A DNA stretch of 64,000 bases, taken from NCBI GenBank assembly GCA_000004985.1, contig GG738875.1, one strand, 5' to 3'. The notes under the pieces were generated by a model. The model did no database searches and was not told the origin of the DNA. It was given only the letters and a program-made list of their open reading frames with translations. Origin of the DNA: Naegleria gruberi. Taxonomy: Eukaryota. Shown one piece after another: positions 10,993-43,991 of this stretch (the stretch's first letter is position 1; each line of letters begins with the position of its first letter). The translations under genes and the position numbers were made by a program.

Positions 10993-11066
10993 TACAGCGA
11001 GCGGGGCTTGAACCCGCGACCTTAAGCGTGTTAGGCTTACGATCTAACCAACTGATCTATCGCTGC
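10993..11066 (-). tRNA. tRNA-Val (anticodon AAC)
   Basis: The reverse complement folds as a canonical cloverleaf. The acceptor is GCAGCGA/TCGCTGT with a G-U at 1:72. The D arm is GATC...GATC. The anticodon stem is TAAGC/GCTTA with loop CTAACAC (anticodon AAC). The T arm is GCGGG-TTCAAGC-CCCGC. No CCA is encoded. Confidence 0.9.
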
Positions 11067-13488: not shown

Positions 13489-13606
13489 GACTACGGCCAT
13501 ATCACGATCCATGCACCTCATCCCGTCCGATTTGAGAAGTTAAGCATCGTCGAGCCACATCAGTACTGAGGTTGGAGACAACTTGGGAACCTGTGGTGCT
13601 GTAGTC
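13489..13606 (+). rRNA. 5S ribosomal RNA (copy 1)
   Basis: 'GACTACGGCCATATCACGAT...CATCCCGTCCGATTTGAGAAGTTAAGC...GGTTGGAGACAACTTGGGAACCTGTGGTGCTGTAGTC' is about 118 nt and is followed by a T4 Pol III terminator. Its layout is that of 5S rRNA. Confidence 0.85.
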
Positions 13607-14290
13607 TTTTACTCTTTTTGTACAGTATCAAGATTAAGTGTTAACTTTGTCAGTTAAATTCCATTAACAATTAATATGTGTGTGATGAATTCACCAATTT
13701 ATAAACAAATAAATGTTGATTGTTAAAAATTGTCGTGTGTTAAAAGGCATGGGTGGAGTTGCGCCACCAACACTTCAGAGAAATGAGCTGATCGTGATGT
13801 TAGAATTACACTACATGCCTCAAATGCAGTGTAATTTTACAAGCATTCTAACCTTCAGATTGTTTTAAATGTTCACTTCATTATGGTATAATTCTTTTTT
13901 TAAAAACAGAATTCAGCCAACTCTGAAATGGAAGCTTCAATTAATCGATGCTTTAATTCTCGTTAGTTATGTAACATATGATATTTCATCGTAAATGAAC
14001 TGTTTAACACTGTTAATATGGATCATTTTAGCACAATGTGGACATTATACTAAGGCCAACTAAGGAATCATTTTATTACGAATGAAATTGGGTGAAAGGG
14101 ATCTGTGAGAAGAATCTTATTCGAAAGTGATTACTTGGTTTGTATCAATAGAAAATTGCAAATATTTATACAACCAATGACAACAAGAATATTAATTACT
14201 TTTCCAGTTGATGATCATAAAAAGGAACAACAAACGTCACTCATCAATTAATAAAATAAATCAAAAAAATTAAAAAAATATTAAAAAAAA

Positions 14291-22177: not shown

Positions 22178-22295
22178 GACTACGGCCATATCACGATGAA
22201 TGCACCTCATCCCGTCCGATTTGAGAAGTTAAGCATCGTCGAGCCACATCAGTACTGAGGTTGGAGACAACTTGGGAACCTGTGGTGCTGTAGTC
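22178..22295 (+). rRNA. 5S ribosomal RNA (copy 2)
   Basis: Near-identical to copy 1; one difference is 'GATGAATG' versus 'GATCCATG'. The same roughly 40 bp of upstream flank ('ttgttttcttattca.aattaagattttaa') is conserved, and a T5 terminator follows. Confidence 0.85.
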
Positions 22296-22545
22296 TTTTT
22301 ATTTTCACTTAAGGTTCCTTTAATGGAAGACCTTCTTATTTTACATAATAATAGATCACCCCAAAATTCTGTAAAAGTGAAAGTGTTTAAATGTGCCTTT
22401 TATGGCCAGTGGAACCAACATGCAAAAATTTCGTGCGTACAATCTCATCAGTTTGAGCGCTTTGAATTTCCTTTATCTTTCCCGCTCAAAACCATTTTTA
22501 CTTTTTTCAAAATCAAAACAAAAAAGCAAAACTCAAACAATAACA

Positions 22546-32700: not shown

Positions 32701-35700
32701 GGATGGATAAAATTTAATAGAGGATAAACATCATCTACTGTGCCATTTCCAGAAAAATACCTTTCCAACACCCAGAATCGCTCTGGAGCGAAGAAATTCA
32801 AAAAGAAATGTTTTCCTAAATAATTATCCAAAATGGTTTGCCAGTTTTGTGTTTCCGTCTCAATTTCTTGGATATTATCTGGCAATGCATCGAAATCTAT
32901 TTTTTCAGAACAATAATCCTTATTGTTTCCCAAAGCTTTCAAATTGTTAATTTTTGTTAAGTAATCAAAAGCAAGATCACAATATTCTATAAACATTTCC
33001 ATATCATGGAAATTTCTTTCAAGAGATTGGTCTTTTCTTGAATTTATAATCAACAATGCTCCGCTTCGTAAATCTTGTATATCAGCTATACTGACTTGTT
33101 TTACCTGGTCGTCATTACCATTGTAAAGCAGAGATAAAATATAGGCAGTAACATTTTCCAATGAAACTCTAAAATAGCCAGATTGTGTGGCATTGTAAAT
33201 TGTTTCCTTTGTGAGCTCTCCTCTGTTAGCAATAGAGTCTAGCAGATTTTTCAAACCGTTAATAGAATGATTTGAGCTTTCGACCTTCACTACTAATTTT
33301 AAATCTACAACAATATTTGATAAACGGTTACAAAAATCTTGGATGCTTCTATATTCCTGGCTAATGATTGGCCTGATTAATTTGCTGGCCTCAATCAAAT
33401 CTGCCACTGTTTCTTGCCTTATAAAGTTTTCTCCCAAATCTTCAACTGCATTTACCAAAGCCATAATACTTTGTTGATCAGTCTCCTTAATGAATTGAAG
33501 GAGTGGAGAAGAAGTAGACAAGGCATCTAGAAAAAGACAGTCCATTCTAGCAAGAGAATAGGTGCTAATTATTTGCTCTACACGCTTACAAGTTTCAATC
33601 CAATTCGATTCTAAGCTCATATTCTTGAATTCATTTAATTCATCAATTTCAGTATCAATATCACCGATGTCAAGAGCATTTGAGCCAGTAATCTCTATAA
33701 TTTTTTGAACCAGCTCCATTACCTGTTTTGTAAAGAGAAGGGTTTTCAATTTGGTAGTAAGTTCTATTACTTTTTCATCACTTGCGTCAACAAGATTACC
33801 CAAAAATTTCACTTCATTTGTAATATTTTCTTTTTTGATAGCTCCTAAAATTTCAATAACTTTGGAGGAAGGTAGTATTCTCCCCTAAAAACAGTTCATA
33901 AGAAAAATGTGTAAGCTCTACACTTATAGCAGAACCAAGATCGATTATATCACTAACCAAGCTAGTATGTTTGCTTGTTCTCGCTTTAAGGAGTTTGGAA
34001 AAGGATTTTGACTGCTTGCAGCAAATGATAGTCTTCAAATTTTTGTTTTCAGCTCCAGATACAGATTGATTTTGGAATTCTGAAAAGCTCATCTTCATCA
34101 TGCCATCATATAAATCCTTATATTTCTTTTTCATCTTTTCGAAATCAGAACAATGGGTACAGTATGCATCAAGAATTTTTCTCATATCATTGATGTGTTC
34201 TTTGTATGTATTGATTTGTTGTATCATATCAGCAAGACTTTTAACACAATCCTCTCCGAGATATAACTTCAATATTTGATGATCATTGTTGTTCAAATTT
34301 TCAATTTTTTCCACTGTTACAGCTGCAAGGTTCTTCTTTAAAAAGTTAATCTTTGTGGTAATGTTCAAAAGTTTTGGCTCTGGTTTTAGAGTAAAGTACT
34401 TAATCAATAAAAACCAAGCATTGTCTTTAAACACTCTTTCCGTGTCCATCAATTCTAATATCTTCAAAAGGATGGCACGTAAGTGAGAAGTGTTGAACTC
34501 CTTTCCGCAACAAACACCATCAATGACATAAAGGTACAAGGGTACTTTTTTGCTTTGCAATTTTTTGATAGTAATTTTAATCACTTCAACCACAGATTCA
34601 TCAAGAAATTTAATTGGCAACGCACACGGTTCGTTGATGATCGTCTTTAAACAAAAATCCAACAGTGACTCATCAGTTCCCTTTTTCTCCAATCGAGGGA
34701 GAATAACCTCATGCACAGTATCTAGAAAATTCTTTCCAAGATTTACGGTACACAAGTGAAGATAATAAGTTAAATCTTCTACACGTACACCTCCGAAAGT
34801 AACTCTAGCGGCAAGCCATTTCTTCAGCTGATCTTTCAATTCATTGTTTTGGAATTTTTTTATAAATTTGCAATGGTGATAAAAAACTTTACAGTCTTTT
34901 CATTGTCGGTCAATTGCATGGTGCTAAGAAGTACTTTTAGTTTGTCTTCCTTCTTGATTTCAGATTGGTCAATGAGTTCTTGAATTCTGATCAATTCTGT
35001 TTCATCTTCCAAATCAACCTTTTCAGACAAAATCAATGCAACCATTTGTGTGTCAACAGATAAACTCAACTTGGGATAGTTTTCTCTAATTGAGAACAAC
35101 TTATCCATGTTGGATTCTGTACCAATTGCTTTCTTGAACTTGTCTTTAAATTCATATGAGTTTGAATATTCTGGATTCAGTTCTAAAATGAAATCAAGAT
35201 ACGTCATTCTAACTGGTAACGAATTCAAGAGGAAACGTGCCACTGCACCAACGTAAGGACTATTCAAAATGGCTTGCTTCTTTTTCATAAGGTTTTCCAT
35301 TATCTCACTCAAAGCTCCTTCGTTTGTTATTAAGTAATTAGTATGATTGTTCTTTACAAACTCATAACCTGTAATTTCGGTGTAATCTGAAGACAAAAGT
35401 CTTAAGGCAAAATCAGGAGTGAGACTGATGGCAATTCTGGTGAGAATAACACCTAAACATTTGGATATTGTTTTGTATTGCTTCATTTCTGAATTAAAGG
35501 GAACAGCTAAAAGAGAGTTGAAAATCAATTTCATATCATTAAATTGCAAATTGAATAGAGCATCTGACAATCCAAGTAGAGTACATATGATGAACCGAGT
35601 GTTAACATCTTCTGGGGTTAGGTTCTTCATAAAGGTCACAGCATAATAGAGATCAAGTTTTTTGTTTGATTGGACGAATGATGTTAATAAACTTTCTAAC

Positions 35701-36941
35701 TTTTCATAAATGTTTCTACCTGTTTACAGATATAACACGGCAATATTCTACAAGTCCAACAGTATGGTTTTGGTCGAACGCAAAACTATATCTACTTTCA
35801 CCAAGCATGACCATACAAGGTCTAATGTCATTGCCAGTGAAAAATCTATTTACTACATTCTTGGAAACGTGCATTTGTAAAACGACAGAATGGACATATG
35901 GATCAAAGTTACCTCTCATTACATAAAATTGTTGCCCAATCGGTTCCATCTCTCCCAATTTTCTTTTTCTATCATCAAAAACCTCTACCTTGCTGTATTG
36001 ATTGTTCTCTTGCCACAAATAGATGGTTCGTTTCAAGAATGCCTCATTGCTGACAATAGAACTGGAAGAAGTTGCTACCTGGTTGTCTTTTGTAATTGGA
36101 ATCTGAATCAGTCTTTTGGAGCGAGTACCCTTTCTGAAAAGTTTCGATCTTCTTCTCTTGTTGCTGATTTTCCTTACTCTCTGATACCACTGAAACAGTC
36201 TGTTGTTCGATTGTTTCTGGAGGATCTGAAATAGGAGGATATTGAACCTTCTTTGGTTCACTGATCGTACTGTTTTCGACTGCTGGTAACTCATTACCAA
36301 TAGTCTGATCAGTATCAATGTCCATATTATCATTCGATTGGTTACCACTTGTTTGATCGACTGGAGGTATGTGTGTTTGATCACCAGATGAAGTGCTAGT
36401 TCTAGGTGTTTGGGATTCGGTTGATGGTTTTGGAGGGCCTTCAGAATTCCCAACCCTATTCTCCTCTTGCACAGTTGTGGAACTGTTGGGAGGATTAGCT
36501 GTTAACATTTTTTTTGAGATGATGAGACGAAACGTGATGAAGTGTCAAAGTTTTATTTACCCAAAGGTTTGGAAACTGTTTGCCTCTCTGATCTTTGATT
36601 GGTACATGAAGAAGTTGCGTTGTGGACGCAGGTTGCCAATCCTCTTGTGTTCGAATTACAACAAGTGCATGGTCCTAAACAGACGAAACAAAACTTAAGT
36701 GAACAATTACTGCATAACATGTGACGACATCCTCTACCACTATGAGTATTTGGAGTAAAGAAGTCTGGACACAAACGCATTGAAGGCACTCCTGTAGCAA
36801 GAAATGGAGCTGATCCGTTCATTGAAATATTCTATTCGAATCACGTTTAGTTACAGATGGATCAATTACGGATAATGAACCAATTAAAATACTTACAACT
36901 GTTTTGCATTTAGAGGCTGCGTCTTGTTTGTGTTCATTCAT
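23718..36941 (-). CDS. giant RNF213/mysterin-like protein: N-terminal Cys-rich module, S/T-rich linker, dynein-like AAA ATPase units, RZ-type zinc finger (putative E3)
   Basis: The main exon 33812..23718 (3364 aa) has no ATG. Its frame stays open upstream to a 'tttttag' acceptor. The exons 34839..33853 and 35639..34860 lie in the same frame, separated by one TAA that sits inside a candidate 65-nt GTAAAG..CAG intron. Further upstream exons are found on the same strand. The first exon 36941..36897 ('MNEHKQDAASKCKTV') ends in GTAAGT. The next exon is Cys-rich, with 'CPDFF..GCRHMLCSNCSLKFCFVCLGPCTCC'. A phase-1 GTAAAT..AACAG intron then joins it to an S/T/Q-rich exon. AAA motifs include 'VISGETGCGKTSLVEFLAKK', 'VVGKPGCSKSLAIQLL' and 'DVSGVGKT'. 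The RZ finger is 'RYRCNCGYVYLIGNCGQPNGTARCPTCGATLGG'. The exact exon boundaries at 35650..36100 are unresolved. Confidence 0.65.
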
Positions 36942-37145: not shown

Positions 37146-38048
37146 ATGGATAAATGTCCAGAAGATGGATTTCTCCTTCCGGAACAAACCAAGGATTTTA
37201 TCTCAAGATCTTTGAGAGGGCAACAAGTAGAGGTGAATGATCAAGAAATTAATGTGATTGAAACTCCACAAGTTGATGAACCAATCACTGTTCAAATTTT
37301 GACACTTGGTGGCTCAGTTTGTCAAGTTAAAACTAACAAGAAGCACTCAATCATCACATTGAAGGAAGAAATTGAGAAGTACATGGATATTCCAGTTGGT
37401 AAACAGTCGCTCTTCTTTAGGAATACAGAATTGGAGAATTACAATAATGGTATGTCAAGAAGAGTGGGAGATTTTGGAATTCAAGATAATGACAAGATCT
37501 ATCTCTCCATTTTAATGAAGGAAATTGATGTTGGAGACAATATCAATGCAGTGAAAGTTAGATTACAATGGAATTGGGTTAATTCTCGTGATTTCTTGGA
37601 TGGAATCGTCTACGTTCTCGATGGAAATAACAACATTACAGCAAGACTCGATTATGATAACAATGTTTCTCCTCTTTGTGGAGAATCAATCTTCCACAAA
37701 GGAGACGATATTGACAATGACAGAAAATTAGGATGTCAAATCATTGGCATGAACCTTGAAAACATTCCAATGTCTGTTCAAACTATTGTCTTTACTTTGA
37801 GCTCATACAGAGCATCTTCTCTCAGCTCCTTCAAGAATCCTCGTGTTCACATCGAAGAGGAAACAAGAGGTCAACCATTGGCTGGTTGTGATACTGATGC
37901 GATTAAATCTCAGGCAATTATTGTTTGTGCTTTTAGAAGATCACAACAAGGATGGAGAATCATTCAAATCAATAGAGAATCTTCAGGCAATGCACAAAAT
38001 GATTCTGCTCTCATAACATCCATTATTGATGTTGTCAGAAATTTGTAG
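37146..38048 (+). CDS. ubiquitin-like (beta-grasp) domain fused to TerD-family domain
   Basis: The N-terminal 'ITVQILTLGGSVCQVKTNKKHSIITLKEEIEKYMDIPVGKQSLFFRNTELEN' has a ubiquitin-fold pattern. The C-terminal half aligns with TerD: 'VKVRLQWNW', 'FLDGIVYVLDG', 'HKGDDIDNDRKLGCQIIGMNLENIPMSVQTIVFTLSSY', and 'QAIIVCAFRRSQQGWRIIQI'. Confidence 0.7.
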   Translation: MDKCPEDGFLLPEQTKDFISRSLRGQQVEVNDQEINVIETPQVDEPITVQILTLGGSVCQVKTNKKHSIITLKEEIEKYMDIPVGKQSLFFRNTELENYNNGMSRRVGDFGIQDNDKIYLSILMKEIDVGDNINAVKVRLQWNWVNSRDFLDGIVYVLDGNNNITARLDYDNNVSPLCGESIFHKGDDIDNDRKLGCQIIGMNLENIPMSVQTIVFTLSSYRASSLSSFKNPRVHIEEETRGQPLAGCDTDAIKSQAIIVCAFRRSQQGWRIIQINRESSGNAQNDSALITSIIDVVRNL

Positions 38049-38059
38049 AATAAACTTTA

Positions 38060-38320
38060 TTAGAAGAAACTAAAAGATGAACCATCTTTGACACCAGAAA
38101 TAACAATATGATCACCATCAAATATTCTCAACTTTTTCAAGCTATCATTAAAACGATCATCACTATTATTAATAGAATCTTGACTTTCCTGTACGTAGAG
38201 ACTCATCTCTGAGCTATTGAGTTTAAATTCGATTCTTGCTGTGGCAGCAACTTCAGAGAGAGTTGTAGTTTCGGCTACTGTGATTTCCTTCTTGGTATTG
38301 TATTCAATCCAAATCTTCAT
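38060..38320 (-). CDS. small stand-alone beta-grasp/ubiquitin-like candidate protein (86 aa)
   Basis: 'MKIWIEYNTKKEITVAETTTLSEVAATARIEFKL...LRIFDGDHIVISGV' shows the beta-beta-alpha-...-beta hydrophobic pattern of a ubiquitin fold. There is no terminal Gly-Gly; it ends '...GVKDGSSFSFF'. It sits tail-to-tail 12 bp from the TerD gene and 94 bp divergent from the E1 gene. Confidence 0.3.
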   Translation of the reverse strand: MKIWIEYNTKKEITVAETTTLSEVAATARIEFKLNSSEMSLYVQESQDSINNSDDRFNDSLKKLRIFDGDHIVISGVKDGSSFSFF

Positions 38321-38413: not shown

Positions 38414-41400
38414 ATGGGAATCGTGAAACAAAAACATAAAAAAATGTCTGATACGCTCCTTCTCAGTCGTCAATTTAGTGTGTTTGGTGCCAATGAGACT
38501 CATCATATTGAAAACTGCAAGCTTTTGATCATTGGTTGTAATGGATTAGGCAATGAAGTTGGTAAGTTTTGTTTCGTCATTCATTCTCACAACAGTTTTA
38601 TAGCCAAGAACTTGATCATGGCAGGTGTGAAGAATGTTACTCTATTCGATCCGAAGGGTGTAGAATGGAGAGATTTATCAGGTCTTGTAAGTGAGAACAA
38701 TTCCACTTTTTCGAATACTTTTGTTAACATGATTATTCGAAACGTACTACAGACATTTGTTGGTTCGATTACAATGAAAACCAGAGCCAAGATCGTAATG
38801 GATTATTTGAAAGATCTTGCTCCCAAAACAAACATCAAGGAATCAACTGCAAAGACTTTTTCTGCATTATGTCAAGAAAGTTATCTCAGAGAATTCACTT
38901 TTGTTGTTTGTTGTGGTTATCCTCTTTCTTTGAATTCTAAACTTAACGAAACTTGCAGAAAGGTCGGTATACCTTTCCTTTGCTGTGATTCAAAGGGAGT
39001 TTTGAGTTATGTTTTTGAAGATTTGGGTGAAAATTATACCTACATTGTTGATGATGGTAAAACAAATTATGACACCTCAATTCCTATTGTTTCCATTCAA
39101 AAAGTTGAGAATTCTGATAACAAATATCAAATTATGTGTACTTCTACCTTGAGTGATGGGGTTCTTGTTTCATTCCATCAAATTGTTAACAAATCAATGG
39201 GTGAGGTCAGTGTTGAGGCAAAGAATGACAAGTCAATTGAAACTTCTGAGCATCTTAAAGAAGAATCTATTGATAAGGCTGCAACAACGTCTTCTGCCCC
39301 TGAAGTGAGTAATGAAGGGGAAGTTGAAACTGAAAAGCAAGAAAACATTCCACTTGAACAAACAAAACAAAACGAATCCAATATGAATCCTCAAAATTCC
39401 CAAGTCGAAGAAGAGGTGAACATGATGGAAATTCAAGAAAAATCACACCACCTCCTCGTGAAGAACTATTGGTCCAAAAATCATTCAATCTTCCTACTGG
39501 AAAGTTTAAAATTTCCAACTCTTCCAAGAACTGCTTTACAATTGAATGTGAAGATGAAATTAATCCTGAATGTTATGAAGGAGGATGTTTCTTGAAATTG
39601 GTACGAGAACAAAAAAGTGTTTCCTTTGTAAGTAGTTTTGAGTTTTTTCATGTTCAATTTGACAATGTTAATTAGAAACCATTGGAAGAATTGATTAATC
39701 ATTCCAAGGACAGTTTCTTTTACAATAGAAGAAAGCCAATTGACAATTTACAACTAATGTGCTTGAAAGTATATGATATCTTTGTTCAAGAAAATGGACG
39801 TTCTCCACTTCCATGGAACACTAAAGATTGTACTCAATGCAAGGATTTATCAATTCAGCTTATCAATTCCTATATTAATAATGATATCGTTGAAGACCTC
39901 AAAGGTTTAGAAAGCAAAGCAGAGCTATTCTTTAATACAAGCCAGCAAATATTGCACCATTGAATGCCATGGTTGGTGGTCTAGTTGCCCAAGAAACCTT
40001 GAAATCCATCTCCAGAAAGTACACTCCTCTCAAAGATGATCGAGCCCTTAATCAATTCCTTTTCATTGACAACTTTAATTTGGGTGATACTTTGGAAGAA
40101 TCAATAATGAAGGAAAATGTTCAAAATCTTAGAGGAACAATCTATGAAGGTGTTTCCCCACTTCTTACTGAGAGGGCAATTTCACATTTGAACGGAATGA
40201 ATGTTCTTGTGGCTGGTGCAGGTGCTGTTGGTTGTGAGGTTTTGAAAAATCTCTCTTCCATGATGGTGAGCACAAACAAGAACTCTTCGATTCATGTAGT
40301 TGACTATGATCGTGTTGCTCCTTCAAATCTCCACAGACAAATTTTATTTAGAGATTCAGATGCCAAATTAATGGAATTTAAGGCTATTGCTGCGAGTAGA
40401 AAGCTCAAGCAAATGAATCCAGATTTGAATTTGATTGCCAAAACTGAGAAATTATGCTATGAGAGTGAAGAGACTGAATTTCCTGAACAATTCTGGCAGA
40501 ATGTCAATGTCATCTTTTCATGTGTTGATAGCAAGGATGCAAGAGGTTATTTAAGCGATAAAGCTCAAATCCTTCACATTCCCATGATTGAAGGTGGTAC
40601 TGAGGGATCTAAAGGTTCCTCTCTCATCATTCACGAACAAGTTGCAGGTTATGGATCCTACATGAATCTGAATGCTTCAAGAGAGGAGGAAGTTGTAATC
40701 AATAATGCATGTATTCCATCCTTTGCAATTTATAAACCAGAGCAAGCCATAAGAAAGGCAGTAGAACTTTTCACATGGTTCTTTAAGGAAAATGTTGAAG
40801 TTGTGAATTTGCTTGGCAAACATGATCTTTCTGATGAGAAGGTTAAAGAAAATTATGAAATGTATAGAGATGGTCTTGAGAAACCAGAAAAAATGTCCAG
40901 ACAACTCTTTAATATATTGTTTGAGGAACAAATTAATGAAGCTGCTGCCAAATATAATGAAATCAATGAGAAGGGTAAGTTGTAAAATGTTGGAATTGTT
41001 CATAACCAAACTATTCGAAAGATGATGTCAAATTATTGTTGAGAAAACCACCCATTCAAGAAAAATTCAATGCTCATGACGAATCCCATTTAAGATTCCT
41101 CAAAGCATCCAATGCTATCATTAAGGAATTTAAAATCAAAAAGAAAAAGCTCACACCTATCCATTTTGAGAAAGATGAGGATTCTCATTTGGAATGGATT
41201 GTTTCCTGCTCTATTCTATTGTCCAAATGTTATGGAATATTCCATAATGGAGAGAGAGAATTTGTTAGAAGAGTTGCTGGACAAATTATCCCTGCCATCA
41301 TTACAACCACTTCAATGGTCTCAGGTTTCATGTGTCTCAATTTGTTCAAGTATGTCCAGACTGGATATAAGAATCTCAGTAATTTGGATTTTAATACTGC

Positions 41401-42740
41401 AAGTAATGGATATAGTTTCCATCATTGTGTTCAAAAACTGAAGAGTCCAGTCCCTGGAAAGTTAATTTCCAACTTTGAAACAGTTTCAGATTTTGTAATT
41501 TATCCTTCCACAACAATTACTGAATGGGTTGACTTTGTAAAGAGAAAGTATGAAATTGGAGTTGAAAAGATAACAATCTATCCAAAGTTTGATGTTTATG
41601 ACTTTGGATCTCTTCCATGGGGTGAAACGTAAGTTATTTGCAGGCAATCTGATTTTATATTCGAAACCATTTCTAGATTTTATGAAACTTTCAGCAAGAA
41701 TAGAACAATGCAAAAGAAAGAATGGATTACCCTCATCAGTGAGACATACATTGATGGTTTTCCATACAGTTTCAAAACTCAAGTCAGAGTTTCTGTTCCA
41801 CTCAAACTGCAAAATGTTGAAGGATCGTGTTATTTGAATTCTGCATTGCAAGTTTTGCATTCATGTCATGAATTTGTTGAGCAATTGAGAAATAGCTCAC
41901 CAACAACACCTGTTGCAAAGGTTTTGAAATCTGTTTTTGAGGATAACTTTTCAAGAGTAAGTTTTTTCTTAATTCATGTTAATTTGAACCCAAAAAGTCC
42001 AAAATTAATGAACTCAGACGATTGACAAACAGATCAGACAAATATTCAGGAGATACACCAGTAAGTTTTTTTTGCCTAATCATCATCAAAATATTCTAAA
42101 TAATAATAATATTGACAACTAGAAATATGTGAGATCAATTTTTACTGAAATTTTAGGAGAGGAAGAAATTGATAGTGAACTCATCGATTGTAAACTGGTT
42201 GACTATTTCAGTTGGAAATCTCCTCAAATTTGTGATGTTTGTGAAGAGTGTCAACAGTCTATTAGAGGACCTATCAGACCCATTTCCTCTCAAGTTCTTC
42301 TACTTCAAGGAAATCCAAAAGTTTCCACTGAACAATTACTGAACAATAGTTTCTGTTTCGATTCCAATAACAAGTGTCAATGTGGAGGTAAAATTTTCAG
42401 ACACAAAATATTCCAATCCTGCCCAGAATATCTTCTCTGTGAAATTGAAAATCCACAACAAAAGTGGATTCCAAACAATTCTATCGAAACCAAAGTTTAT
42501 ATTGAAACAGTTGACTGTACTTATGAACTAGTTGGTGGAGCCATTTATAGTGGAAATAGAAGTGGTGGACATTGGAGAGCCTACTCAAAACAAGCTTATG
42601 GTTGGTTTAGTTGTGATGATTCAATGGTTTCCTATATTGGAACAACTATTCCAAGTTCATACTTGTTAGGAAGTGCCTTTGTGGCATATAAGAAAGTTGG
42701 CAATGATCCAACAAATGAAGATGAAATGGTTGATGAATAA
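38414..42740 (+). CDS. canonical two-domain E1 (UBA1/UBA6-like ubiquitin-activating enzyme) fused in-frame, via splicing, to a C-terminal USP-type deubiquitinase domain
   Basis: E1 part: the first Rossmann half reads 'LLIIGCNGLGNEV|AKNLIMAGVKNVTLFD', with a 41-nt GTAAGT intron at 38562..38602. The junction into the second half is 'PLNAMVGGLVAQETLKSISRKYTPL'. The active adenylation half is 'VLVAGAGAVGCEVLKNL...VVDYDRVAPSNLHRQILFRDSD'. A catalytic-Cys candidate is 'NNACIPSF'. The E1 continues with 'FEKDEDSHLEWIVSCSIL...GQIIPAIITTTSMVSGFMCLNLFKYVQ' and a UFD-like end. Fusion point: the E1 ORF's TAA at 41630 is part of the donor 'ac|GTAAGT'. Splicing to the TTTCAG acceptor at about 41685 keeps the frame into 'KNRTMQKKEW...'. 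USP part: the Cys box is 'LQNVEGSCYLNSALQVL', the zinc ribbon is 'ICDVCEEC...CQCGGK', and the His box is 'YELVGGAIYSGNRSGGHWRAYSKQAYGWFSCDDSMVSY'. Unresolved frame shifts are noted at about 39440-39470 and about 39935-39960. Confidence 0.7.
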
Positions 42741-42899: not shown

Positions 42900-43991
42900 A
42901 TGAGTTTATGTATTGGTGGTTGTGGTTTCTATGGAACACCAGAACGTAGAGGATATTGTTCTTCATGTGAAAAAAAGCATCCGAATAATAATTCAAGTAA
43001 TTTAACAAATGACAGCTTCCAAAAATGGAAAGATGAGCATGATAAACAAAAAGAAGAGGAAGAAATTCTAAAGAAACGTTCTGCTGAATATTTAATTGAA
43101 AATCAACAAAAGAAAGTTCGTAATGAGCCTTGTGTGAAATTTAACATGTCGGAAGTCAGTATGTTGACAGATGGTGGATTATTTGTTGAGATTGTCAAGT
43201 TTTTGGAAGTTTCTGATATGTATCACATTATGCTGGCTTCAAAATCAATGAGTTCATTGGTAAATAATGAGTATATTTGGAAAATTTTATTCGAAAACAA
43301 ATATGGAAATGAGGAGAAACCAATAGTTGGAACTTGTTATGAAAATCTCAGAATGAGAGGAAGGTTTACAAGATCTGAAGTGTCATGGAACTATTTCACT
43401 GAAAATCCATGGGTATTAGAAAAGTTGCTCACCATTAAAATTACCAAAATTGGAAAAATTGGAAATCTCAATTCACCATTGGATCAATTAATTCCTCCCT
43501 CAATTAATAGACAAAACATCACTCAAATAATCAAACATTTATGGCAACCACTCAAAAATGACCTTCCACATCTTATTGAACTACTCACACAAAGAATCAA
43601 AAATCTCCTAGTTGTCAGAGATGAATTATCAAGATGGCATTTGATTTATGTTTTTAAATTACAATCAGAGGATGAAGAGGAAGATGAAGAGGATGAAGAG
43701 GAAAATGTTAGGTTTCTCTCAGGAGGTCTGCCTTACCATCCAGGAAACTCTGGAAATGAATTACAATTTGATTGGTGGGGGAAATGTCCAACCTCTCTGA
43801 AAAGTTTCATGTCAATTCATAATGGATTTGGTGATAATCCAAGTTTGGATTATAGTAAGGGAACTTTTGATAGTTCAGTATTTGTGAATTATCCAAAGTT
43901 TGATGGATTGGAAGTTTTGACGTTTCATCATGGTGCTGATTTGGATCAATGTAAGTATGATAATATTGTAAATTATTGTAATTTTCAATGA
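42900..43991 (+). CDS. A20-type zinc finger + F-box protein
   Basis: The N-terminus 'MSLCIGGCGFYGTPERRGYCSSCEKK' is the A20 zinc-finger pattern C-x2-C-x11-C-x2-C. 'LTDGGLFVEIVKFLEVSDMYHIMLASKSMSSLVNNEYIWKILF' is F-box-like. The protein also has an acidic E/D tract. Confidence 0.55.
   Translation: MSLCIGGCGFYGTPERRGYCSSCEKKHPNNNSSNLTNDSFQKWKDEHDKQKEEEEILKKRSAEYLIENQQKKVRNEPCVKFNMSEVSMLTDGGLFVEIVKFLEVSDMYHIMLASKSMSSLVNNEYIWKILFENKYGNEEKPIVGTCYENLRMRGRFTRSEVSWNYFTENPWVLEKLLTIKITKIGKIGNLNSPLDQLIPPSINRQNITQIIKHLWQPLKNDLPHLIELLTQRIKNLLVVRDELSRWHLIYVFKLQSEDEEEDEEDEEENVRFLSGGLPYHPGNSGNELQFDWWGKCPTSLKSFMSIHNGFGDNPSLDYSKGTFDSSVFVNYPKFDGLEVLTFHHGADLDQCKYDNIVNYCNFQ

Follow-up and report, generated by a model that had tools for sequence, protein, structure and literature searches.

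Results

A probable E1-USP gene in Naegleria gruberi

Each cascade of ubiquitin or of a ubiquitin-like protein begins with an E1, an enzyme whose architecture is among the most conservative in the system. The gene described here lies in a 64,000-nucleotide (nt) stretch of the Naegleria gruberi genome (contig GG738875.1 of assembly GCA_000004985.1; "the window", to which all positions refer) and very likely encodes an E1 ubiquitin-activating enzyme and a USP deubiquitinase domain on one polypeptide, the USP part being joined via an intron spliced at position 41629. Judged from the sequence, bases 38444-42740 form, with high probability, a single gene of about 10 short exons (Table 1). Nine exons in the window translate to protein XP_002675875.1 (EFC43131.1; UniProt D2VJ36; hereafter P0154), with exact identity at 1229 of 1229 amino acids (aa). 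The public entry, locus NAEGRDRAFT_80153, was deposited with the 2010 genome under the description "predicted protein" (Naegleria gruberi). It already joins the E1 and the USP through the donor at 41629, reading GSLPWGET/FYETFSKNRTMQKKEW across the join and FYETFSK on the USP side, and it shares a 90%-identity cluster with P0004, a 198-aa open reading frame (ORF). An exact look-up of P0154 gave no identical protein on record. An earlier note on this DNA, made from the letters alone, had set the span of the gene at 38414-42740. The first ATG of the ORF is indeed at 38414, but the public model starts at ATG 38444 (MSDTLLL), which is preceded by aaacataaaaaaaATGTC, the same context as found at the start of the neighboring gene at 42900.

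Removal of introns 1 and 2 gives a gapless alignment to Uba1, and the product of the splice at 39905-39945 is likewise gapless against S. pombe Uba1 over the junction. The intron at the E1-USP junction measures 48 nt, the other seven accepted introns of the gene 41-66 nt. A ciliate genetic code, with TAA read as glutamine, was considered and dropped since TAA is the stop of long ORFs all over the window and the DNA comes from Naegleria.

The E1 half

In the spliced model, Pfam detected ThiF (1.7e-62) in two stretches corresponding to the inactive and the active adenylation domains. Comparison by phmmer with the structures of Uba1, UBA6 and UBA7 (PDB 3CMM, 4II2, 6DC6, 7SOL and 8SE9) produced three colinear stretches with E values of about 1e-65 to 1e-67. 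The comparison with UBA1, UBA6 and UBA7 called for in the earlier note thus gave colinear matches, and the ATP-binding motif, the arginine and aspartate motifs and the cysteine are present. The order of domains is the same in all (inactive adenylation domain, first catalytic-cysteine half-domain, four-helix bundle, active adenylation domain, catalytic cysteine, ubiquitin-fold domain), and the Naegleria E1 is about 25-30% identical to these enzymes, with the ATP-binding motifs and the cysteine conserved. It differs from them by a large acidic insert in the first half-domain, by a ubiquitin-fold domain too divergent to be recognized by Pfam E1_UFD, and by the C-terminal addition of the USP. The second catalytic-cysteine half-domain is also not of full size: only positions 159-245 of the 254 in Pfam UBA_E1_SCCH are matched (E 5e-5), reflecting a deletion of about 75-100 residues which is common to the Naegleria protein and to a distant homologue, P0155 (see below). 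The motif around the candidate catalytic cysteine departs from the consensus; P0155 has KCLPS at this position. From these comparisons the E1 half is a divergent single-chain UBA1-type enzyme, with predicted adenylation and thioester activity.

The USP half

The UCH family (PF00443) was detected by Pfam with an E value of 1.4e-13 and a score of 51.5 bits on the spliced model and 49.8 bits on the public model, the cut-off being 23.9. The closest solved structures are those of yeast Ubp6 and human USP14. GSCYLNSALQ, GGHWRAY and CDDSMVS align with GNTCYLNATLQ, SGHYQAF and NDDKVS of Ubp6, so that the Cys box, the His box and the aspartate of the triad all find their counterparts; the three boxes are kept in P0155 as well. 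The intact Cys box and the His box (GGHWRAY...CDDSMVSY) described in the earlier note were found in place, and the alignment with the USP triad that it called for holds for Cys, His and Asp. Its description of the zinc ribbon as a CxxC pair was correct in part: cysteine pairs do occur at the fingers site, but the second is CxC and not CxxC. The two pairs lie about 48 residues apart; P0155 has CLEC and CPQC. Degenerate versions of this four-cysteine zinc site are common among genuine USPs. Compared with Ubp6 and USP14, the Naegleria USP is very divergent (E about 5e-4 against the PDB) and, unlike usual USPs, it carries no ubiquitin-like or other usual accessory domain and is attached to an E1. 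The C-terminal domain conforms to the sequence definition of a USP (peptidase C19), and isopeptidase activity is predicted.

The junction between the two halves

The ORF 41036..41632 on the plus strand is terminated by TAA at 41630-41632, within ACGTAAGT at 41627-41634. This stop is embedded in a donor AC/GTAAGT, as the earlier note had pointed out, with GTAAGT at 41629-41634. It is the perfect donor sequence also found in 6 other introns of the gene; of the 8 introns in the public model, 7 have it. GTAAGT was counted 25 times over the two strands of the window, where composition arithmetic gives about 44 expected; being rarer than expected, the hexamer alone is not special. A G before and a GT after TAA are expected by chance at about 1% of TAA stops. 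The donor around the stop is real, yet insufficient alone as proof of splicing.

Two acceptors keep the reading frame. The earlier note had chosen TTTCAG, which is present at 41689-41694; its use would define a 66-nt intron (41629-41694), a multiple of three, with the codon ac/c at the join, and leads in frame to ATG 41708 and the USP ORF. The other acceptor, TTCTAG, ends at 41676, gives a 48-nt intron and is the one used in the public gene model. Splicing to TTTCAG would therefore keep the frame as proposed, but TAG 41676 is mildly favored over CAG 41694. TATTCGAAAC sits 9 nt upstream of the TAG acceptor, with the same spacing as in intron 2, and a TATTCGAAA motif common to three introns of the gene was weighed as a branch-site-like signal. 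Since TTCGAA is common in the window (39 occurrences, mostly Phe-Glu codons), the motif lends the TAG acceptor weak support. TAA 41630 is very probably intronic. From the E1 stop to the USP ATG at 41708 there are 75 nt, compared with 159, 200, 247 and 265 nt in four other tandem gene gaps in the window. A DNA pattern for the spliced junction was not found in JGI metagenome and metatranscriptome contigs.

A second E1-USP protein and an environmental Naegleria contig

Among the 150 best E1 matches, one (P0064, 856 aa, JGI 3300002345) also matched the USP half. P0155, a cluster mate of P0064, is a protein of 1274 aa encoded by one uninterrupted ORF on a 3878-nt contig, L003 (Logan SRR5248432_10719). 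This contig is mRNA-like: it has a 31-nt 5' leader, the ORF ends with TAG followed by TGTAAATAAATAAAAG, and AATAAA comes directly after the stop. It was recovered identically in two independent assemblies of the sample. Colinearity between P0155 and the Naegleria protein extends from the first adenylation domain as far as the His box of the USP, at about 28-31% identity, and P0155 matches the Pfam families ThiF (5e-18) and UCH (5.6e-5). Both proteins show features absent from canonical E1s and USPs, namely the shortened second half-domain, the motif E[FY]VRRVAG and the Cys-box region G.C..N.ALQ.L.SC....EQLR (BLASTP 6e-6 for the segment pair). P0155 differs by a longer linker before the USP and by about 90 extra C-terminal residues after it (3560-3856 of L003), for which there is no Pfam match. 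The occurrence of both halves in the one ORF of P0155 implies that an E1-USP exists as a single polypeptide in a second, distant eukaryote; the same fusion, looked for elsewhere, was found.

Other searches were less productive. A word-indexed search of 5.8 billion proteins returned three matches to the whole protein and none to the region comprising the ubiquitin-fold domain and the USP; repeated with the family alignment, it returned only P0064 and two bird E1s, the search being insensitive enough to miss the identical public protein. A peptide-pattern scan of JGI metagenomes gave no match. Apart from Naegleria itself, the E1 fragment closest to exon 7 is P0005, at 33% identity, on a 922-nt contig (L002, JGI 3300030741). 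It has IIPAIITTTSMVSG.MCLNL in common with exon 7 and a complete tail with a stop and no USP, from which it follows that related E1s lacking the fusion also exist.

An exhaustive profile search with exon 7 found the 198-aa ORF P0004, 98% identical. An environmental metagenome holds a Naegleria strain close to the reference, represented by an 897-nt contig (L001, ENA ERZ929261 / ERR1078381) that carries an ORF 98% identical to that of exon 7 and is about 98% identical over its whole span, which begins in the last part of exon 6 and reaches into exon 8. Over the 607 nt of its exon 7 there are 5 substitutions (3 synonymous, 2 non-synonymous), and the 47-nt intron that precedes is identical. The GTAAGT donor, TAG, CAG, ATG 41708 and the flanking exons are all conserved. 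In the junction segment, 1 nt is deleted, 3 nt are inserted and two positions are substituted; a third substitution lies just downstream at 41705. With 2 indels and 3 substitutions, 41650-41705 appears as a local hotspot of variation in this contig. Because the indels are not a multiple of three, the junction segment is non-coding, which by itself does not tell an intron from an intergenic spacer.

The ubiquitin-fold domain at the junction

The phmmer alignment to S. pombe Uba1 stops at residue 928 of the 1000 in the chain, 23 residues before the Naegleria stop. Counted from the IIPAI motif to the stop at 41632, the tail of the E1 is 115 aa. For 46 full-length E1s the median is 169 aa, and a single one of them has a tail shorter than 115 aa. 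Similarly, a profile of 83 E1 tails (181 positions) was matched no further than position 100, about 14 residues short of the stop. The short tail and the early end of the alignments indicate that an E1 ending at 41632 would miss the rest of its ubiquitin-fold domain: the first strands and the helix would be retained and about 54 C-terminal residues lost. Exon 8 provides about 40 residues ahead of the USP core, the alignment to Ubp6 beginning at VPLKLQN, and may supply the second half of the ubiquitin-fold domain. When profiles were aligned with each other at low stringency, KNRTMQKKEWITLISETY fell on the helix kerl..pl.elv, a placement consistent with this assignment though not proof of it.

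A break of frame in the E1 half

Three-frame translation revealed that the reading frame shifts from window frame 2 to frame 1 within 39352-39445. No convincing GT..AG intron was found to account for the shift at 39352-39445, the remaining pairs having poor donors and purine-rich acceptors. The coding character of the downstream frame-1 sequence is clear: the frame-1 residues from PPPREELL to YEGGCFLKLVREQKSVSFKPLEE are conserved with P0155 and with yeast and S. pombe Uba1, PPPREELL matching PPAQWEEL of P0155. At this place the public model has a 260-nt intron, 39416-39675 (GTGAAC..TAG), which drops 39416-39627; we rejected it, since it would take away the conserved end of the first half-domain. 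This intron is probably an annotation work-around for the frame break, and the E1 half of the public gene model is likely to be in error. A 47-nt candidate at 39458-39504 (GTGAAG..AAG) was likewise rejected since it deletes ELLVQKSFNLPTG, which matches WEELTKKFE of P0155 and whose counterpart in yeast Uba1 we take to be KLNDGTLFKV. The break sits in A-rich runs (caaaacaaaac, gaaaaatc) and could be either a single-base error or allelic indel in these runs or a genuine frameshift.

Neighboring genes

The window has about 34% GC, is dense in ORFs on both strands and contains very short GTAAGT...YAG introns. Four consecutive genes, the E1-USP gene included, carry ubiquitin-system domains above Pfam thresholds, and a fifth among them is weaker. 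The giant gene that resembles RNF213 lies directly upstream of the ubiquitin-like and E1-USP genes and consists of a 3364-aa uninterrupted ORF plus further 5' exons. On its strand, the minus strand, no GTAAGT is found at the junctions in 33812-36500, where GTAAAG donors and AAG acceptors appear possible by eye; spotting introns by GTAAGT may miss those of this interval. An exact look-up of the ubiquitin-TerD protein found no identical protein in the contig collection. The 86-aa ORF is arranged head-to-head with the E1-USP gene, with a 123-nt common upstream region. Its C-terminal end (...IVISGVKDGSSFSFF; ...IVISGVKDG-SSFSFF) makes it a possible candidate for a dedicated modifier requiring C-terminal trimming. 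AlphaFold2 run on it without an alignment was uninformative (pLDDT 39), and its homology to the C-terminal extension of P0155 was not significant (BLASTP E = 0.41). The A20-finger gene may have a further intron, to judge from a GTAAGT at 43951 close to its 3' end. Assuming that the ubiquitin system accounts for about 2-3% of genes, we estimate roughly that such a run of genes is unlikely to arise by chance. The cluster suggests a dedicated pathway rather than bulk ubiquitination.

Table 1. Features of the E1-USP gene and of the surrounding window. Positions are those of the 64,000-nt window.
Feature	Position	Strand	Description
Exon 1	38444..38561	+	MSDTLLLSRQ, start of inactive adenylation domain; exact match to P0154; aligns with Uba1 N-terminus LYSRQLYVLG
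Intron 1	38562..38603	+	42 nt, GTAAGT..TAG; removal restores GLGNEVAKNLIMAGVK, gapless against Uba1
Exon 2	38604..38686	+	Matches P0154
Intron 2	38687..38752	+	66 nt, GTAAGT..CAG; TATTCGAAAC 9 nt before acceptor
Exon 3	38753..39627	+	Rest of inactive adenylation domain, acidic low-complexity insert, end of first catalytic-cysteine half-domain
YEGGCFLKLVREQKSVSF	39574-39627	+	End of first catalytic-cysteine half-domain, in exon 3
Intron	39628..39675	+	48 nt, GTAAGT..TAG
Exon	39676..39904	+	Four-helix-bundle region; Pfam E1_4HB E=4e-4, under cut-off
Putative intron	39905..39945	+	41 nt, GTTTAG..CAG, weak donor; or else a second 1-nt frame change
Exon	39946..40974	+	Active adenylation domain, by Pfam ThiF and alignments to PDB Uba1
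GAGAVGCE	40215-40238	+	ATP-binding GxGxxG; aligns with Uba1
NLHRQILF	40326-40349	+	NL.RQ arginine; aligns with Uba1
CVDSKDARGY	40521-40550	+	Mg-binding Asp motif; aligns with Uba1
Candidate catalytic Cys of E1	codon 40710-40712	+	In NACIPSF; same column as the cysteine of Uba1 P.CT
Intron	40975..41021	+	47 nt, GTAAGT..AAG; identical in contig L001
Exon 7	41022..41628	+	End of shortened second catalytic-cysteine half-domain, IIPAIITTT (41285-41311), first half of ubiquitin-fold domain
Junction intron	41629..41676	+	48 nt, GTAAGT..TAG, with in-frame TAA 41630-41632; alternative acceptor CAG 41694 gives 66 nt
Exon 8	41677..41956	+	About 40 linker residues, possibly completing the ubiquitin-fold domain, then USP Cys box
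Cys box NVEGSCYLNSALQVL	41813-41857	+	Catalytic Cys codon 41828-41830
Intron	41957..41997	+	41 nt, GTAAGT..AAG
Exon 9	41998..42060	+	SKINELRRLTNRSDKYSGDTP; matches P0154
Intron	42061..42122	+	62 nt, GTAAGT..TAG
Exon 10	42123..42740	+	USP fingers and palm, by Pfam UCH and Ubp6 alignment; stop TAA 42738-42740
CDVCEEC	42231-42251	+	Zinc-site cysteines; CDVC 42231-42242
CQCGG	42375-42389	+	Zinc-site cysteines; CQC 42375-42383
His box GGHWRAY	42564-42584	+	His codon 42570-42572
CDDSMVSY	42612-42635	+	Asp codon 42618-42620
Giant gene	23718 to about 36940	-	Dynein-like AAA domains, RZ-type zinc finger PF20173 (5e-16); resembles E3 ligase RNF213
Ubiquitin-TerD gene	37146-38048	+	Single exon; N-terminal ubiquitin PF00240 (3e-6), TerD (3e-11); unusual combination
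86-aa ORF	38060-38320	-	Weak ubiquitin-like matches TUG-UBL1 and UBL_USP40, E about 0.003
A20-finger gene	42900-43991	+	A20-type zinc finger (1.4e-6), weak F-box-like match; start context aaacataaaaaaaATGTC
5S rRNA (two)	13489-13607, 22178-22296	+	Rfam, 98 and 106 bits; dispersed among protein-coding genes
tRNA-Val	10993-11066		Amid protein-coding genes

Discussion

The single E1-USP polypeptide proposed in the earlier note is the best-supported account of the locus because the nine exons reproduce the public model, P0155 carries both halves in one ORF, the ubiquitin-fold domain of an E1 ending at 41632 would otherwise be incomplete, and only 75 nt separate the E1 stop from the USP ATG. Several observations weigh against it. 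The residues that follow the junction intron bear no statistically significant resemblance to the C-terminal half of a canonical ubiquitin-fold domain: splicing does not raise the score of the 83-tail profile (66.7 versus 67.1 bits), Pfam E1_UFD was not detected on the spliced Naegleria protein, and hhalign profile-profile alignment over the exon 8 region is of low confidence only. Compared with contig L001, 41677-41707 is unusually variable, and its 3 substitutions, all non-synonymous under the TAG model, would fit untranslated sequence too. ATG 41708 is conserved and could act as an independent start. The public model of the fused gene is itself a computational prediction, the arginine of the NL.RQ motif is replaced by glycine in P0155, and the change of frame at 39352-39445, with no good intron to explain it, makes a full-length protein from this allele uncertain. 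The role suggested for the USP (see below) is one that we infer, and its logic is that proposed for bacterial E1-JAB proteins.

Some of these observations could be accommodated by two adjacent genes, the E1, its ubiquitin-fold domain truncated or degenerate, ending at TAA 41630, the USP starting at ATG 41708, and the GTAAGT around the stop being a coincidence. The hexamer is not over-represented in the window (25 against about 44 expected), and about 9 of the 25 copies lie in coding or antisense sequence; ATG 41708 is kept in contig L001, where the 31 nt that precede it are the most variable part of the alignment; prokaryote-style gene callers separate the two ORFs; the residues after the intron lack a significant ubiquitin-fold match; and the genome is very compact, with for instance 11 nt between the convergent genes ending at 38048 and 38060. 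Against this, a two-gene arrangement would leave the E1 short of about 54 residues of its C-terminal domain and would have to house a 3' end and a promoter in a 75-nt gap, when other tandem gaps measure 159-265 nt. It would also require the coincidence of G-TAA-GT (about 1%), an in-frame acceptor and same-strand neighbors that happen to be an E1 and a USP, and P0155 carries both halves in one uninterrupted ORF. Two separate genes are, in our judgment, very improbable.

The E1-USP architecture could also be real and the N. gruberi copy decaying or inactive, in which case translation would stop at 39595, owing to a genuine 1-nt frameshift within 39352-39445 of exon 3, and no E1-USP would be made from this allele. 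The switch from frame 2 to frame 1 occurs without an acceptable intron, the public model has to invoke a 260-nt GTGAAC..TAG intron at the cost of residues that are conserved in P0155 and Uba1, and a second frame change, at 39905-39945, leans on a weak GTTTAG donor; an uninterrupted 10-kb ORF elsewhere in the window suggests that the assembly is not generally error-prone. However, the 3.3 kb downstream are devoid of stops or frame defects, and the catalytic motifs are all intact. In exon 7 the 3 synonymous and 2 non-synonymous differences from contig L001 correspond to a dN/dS ratio of roughly 0.2, a rough estimate from very few sites, and the A-rich runs at the break make a single-base miscall or an allelic indel plausible. 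Decay of the copy seems to us unlikely. Finally, it is conceivable that both products are made, splicing yielding the E1-USP and intron retention an E1 without USP, the fusion then being a regulated isoform. The in-frame TAA overlapping the donor would terminate the retained form cleanly, and there are two in-frame acceptors, at 41676 and 41694; the E1 from the retained intron, however, would have an incomplete ubiquitin-fold domain, and we think such dual output improbable.

Under the preferred reading, a single chain would contain a UBA1-type E1 whose ubiquitin-fold domain continues over the junction intron into a C-terminal USP with a Cys/His/Asp triad. Tethered in this way, the USP would be expected to act on the same modifier as the E1. 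It might trim a C-terminal extension, exposing the glycine required by the E1, or it might strip the modifier from wrong targets, the enzyme itself included, and so recycle it.

Bacterial E1-JAB fusions act in anti-phage defense, and the CBASS Cap2/Cap3 and Bil systems are related to them. A bacterial E1-JAB resembles the Naegleria protein in having an adenylating E1 and a deconjugating peptidase on one polypeptide or operon. Bacterial E1-like enzymes are "typically fused ... to the JAB domain", and E1-JAB fusions as well as E2-E1-JAB triple-module proteins were described by Iyer, Burroughs and Aravind in 2006 (PMC1779556), with a coupling of activation to processing proposed for these enzymes (PMC1779556). 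The peptidase is a JAB/MPN metalloprotease in the bacterial proteins and a papain-like USP in Naegleria (the JAB family is not among the Pfam matches of the E1-USP protein, whose peptidase is of the UCH/USP type), and the bacterial E1 is a single domain where that of Naegleria is a UBA1-type pseudo-dimer. From these comparisons the resemblance is a functional analogy, not membership, with no sign of common descent of the fusion. One could imagine the E1-USP as the core of a self-contained, clustered, non-canonical ubiquitin-like module of five genes, in which the USP would mature the 86-aa modifier and hand it to the E1; such a module would be the eukaryotic equivalent of the E1-JAB conflict systems of bacteria and, in keeping with RNF213, might have an immune-like role. 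We regard this scheme as rather doubtful.

A survey of architectures in the eukaryotic ubiquitin system found the accessory domains of E1s to be exclusive, with little connection to other families (PMC4327156). No paper on an E1-USP fusion, or on the Naegleria E1 or USP specifically, was found in the literature searched. The absence of this architecture among characterized E1s, remarked on in the earlier note, holds for the publications searched, but the fused predicted protein has been public since 2010. The practical value of the finding is moderate, the protein being already deposited, albeit unnamed and unstudied. If true, activation and deconjugation would for the first time be seen combined on a single chain in eukaryotes, in at least two distant ones, in parallel with the bacterial E1-JAB proteins. 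The protein would offer a compact system in which to ask whether the processing of a precursor is coupled to its activation, whether an E1 proof-reads its own products, and which modifier is served.

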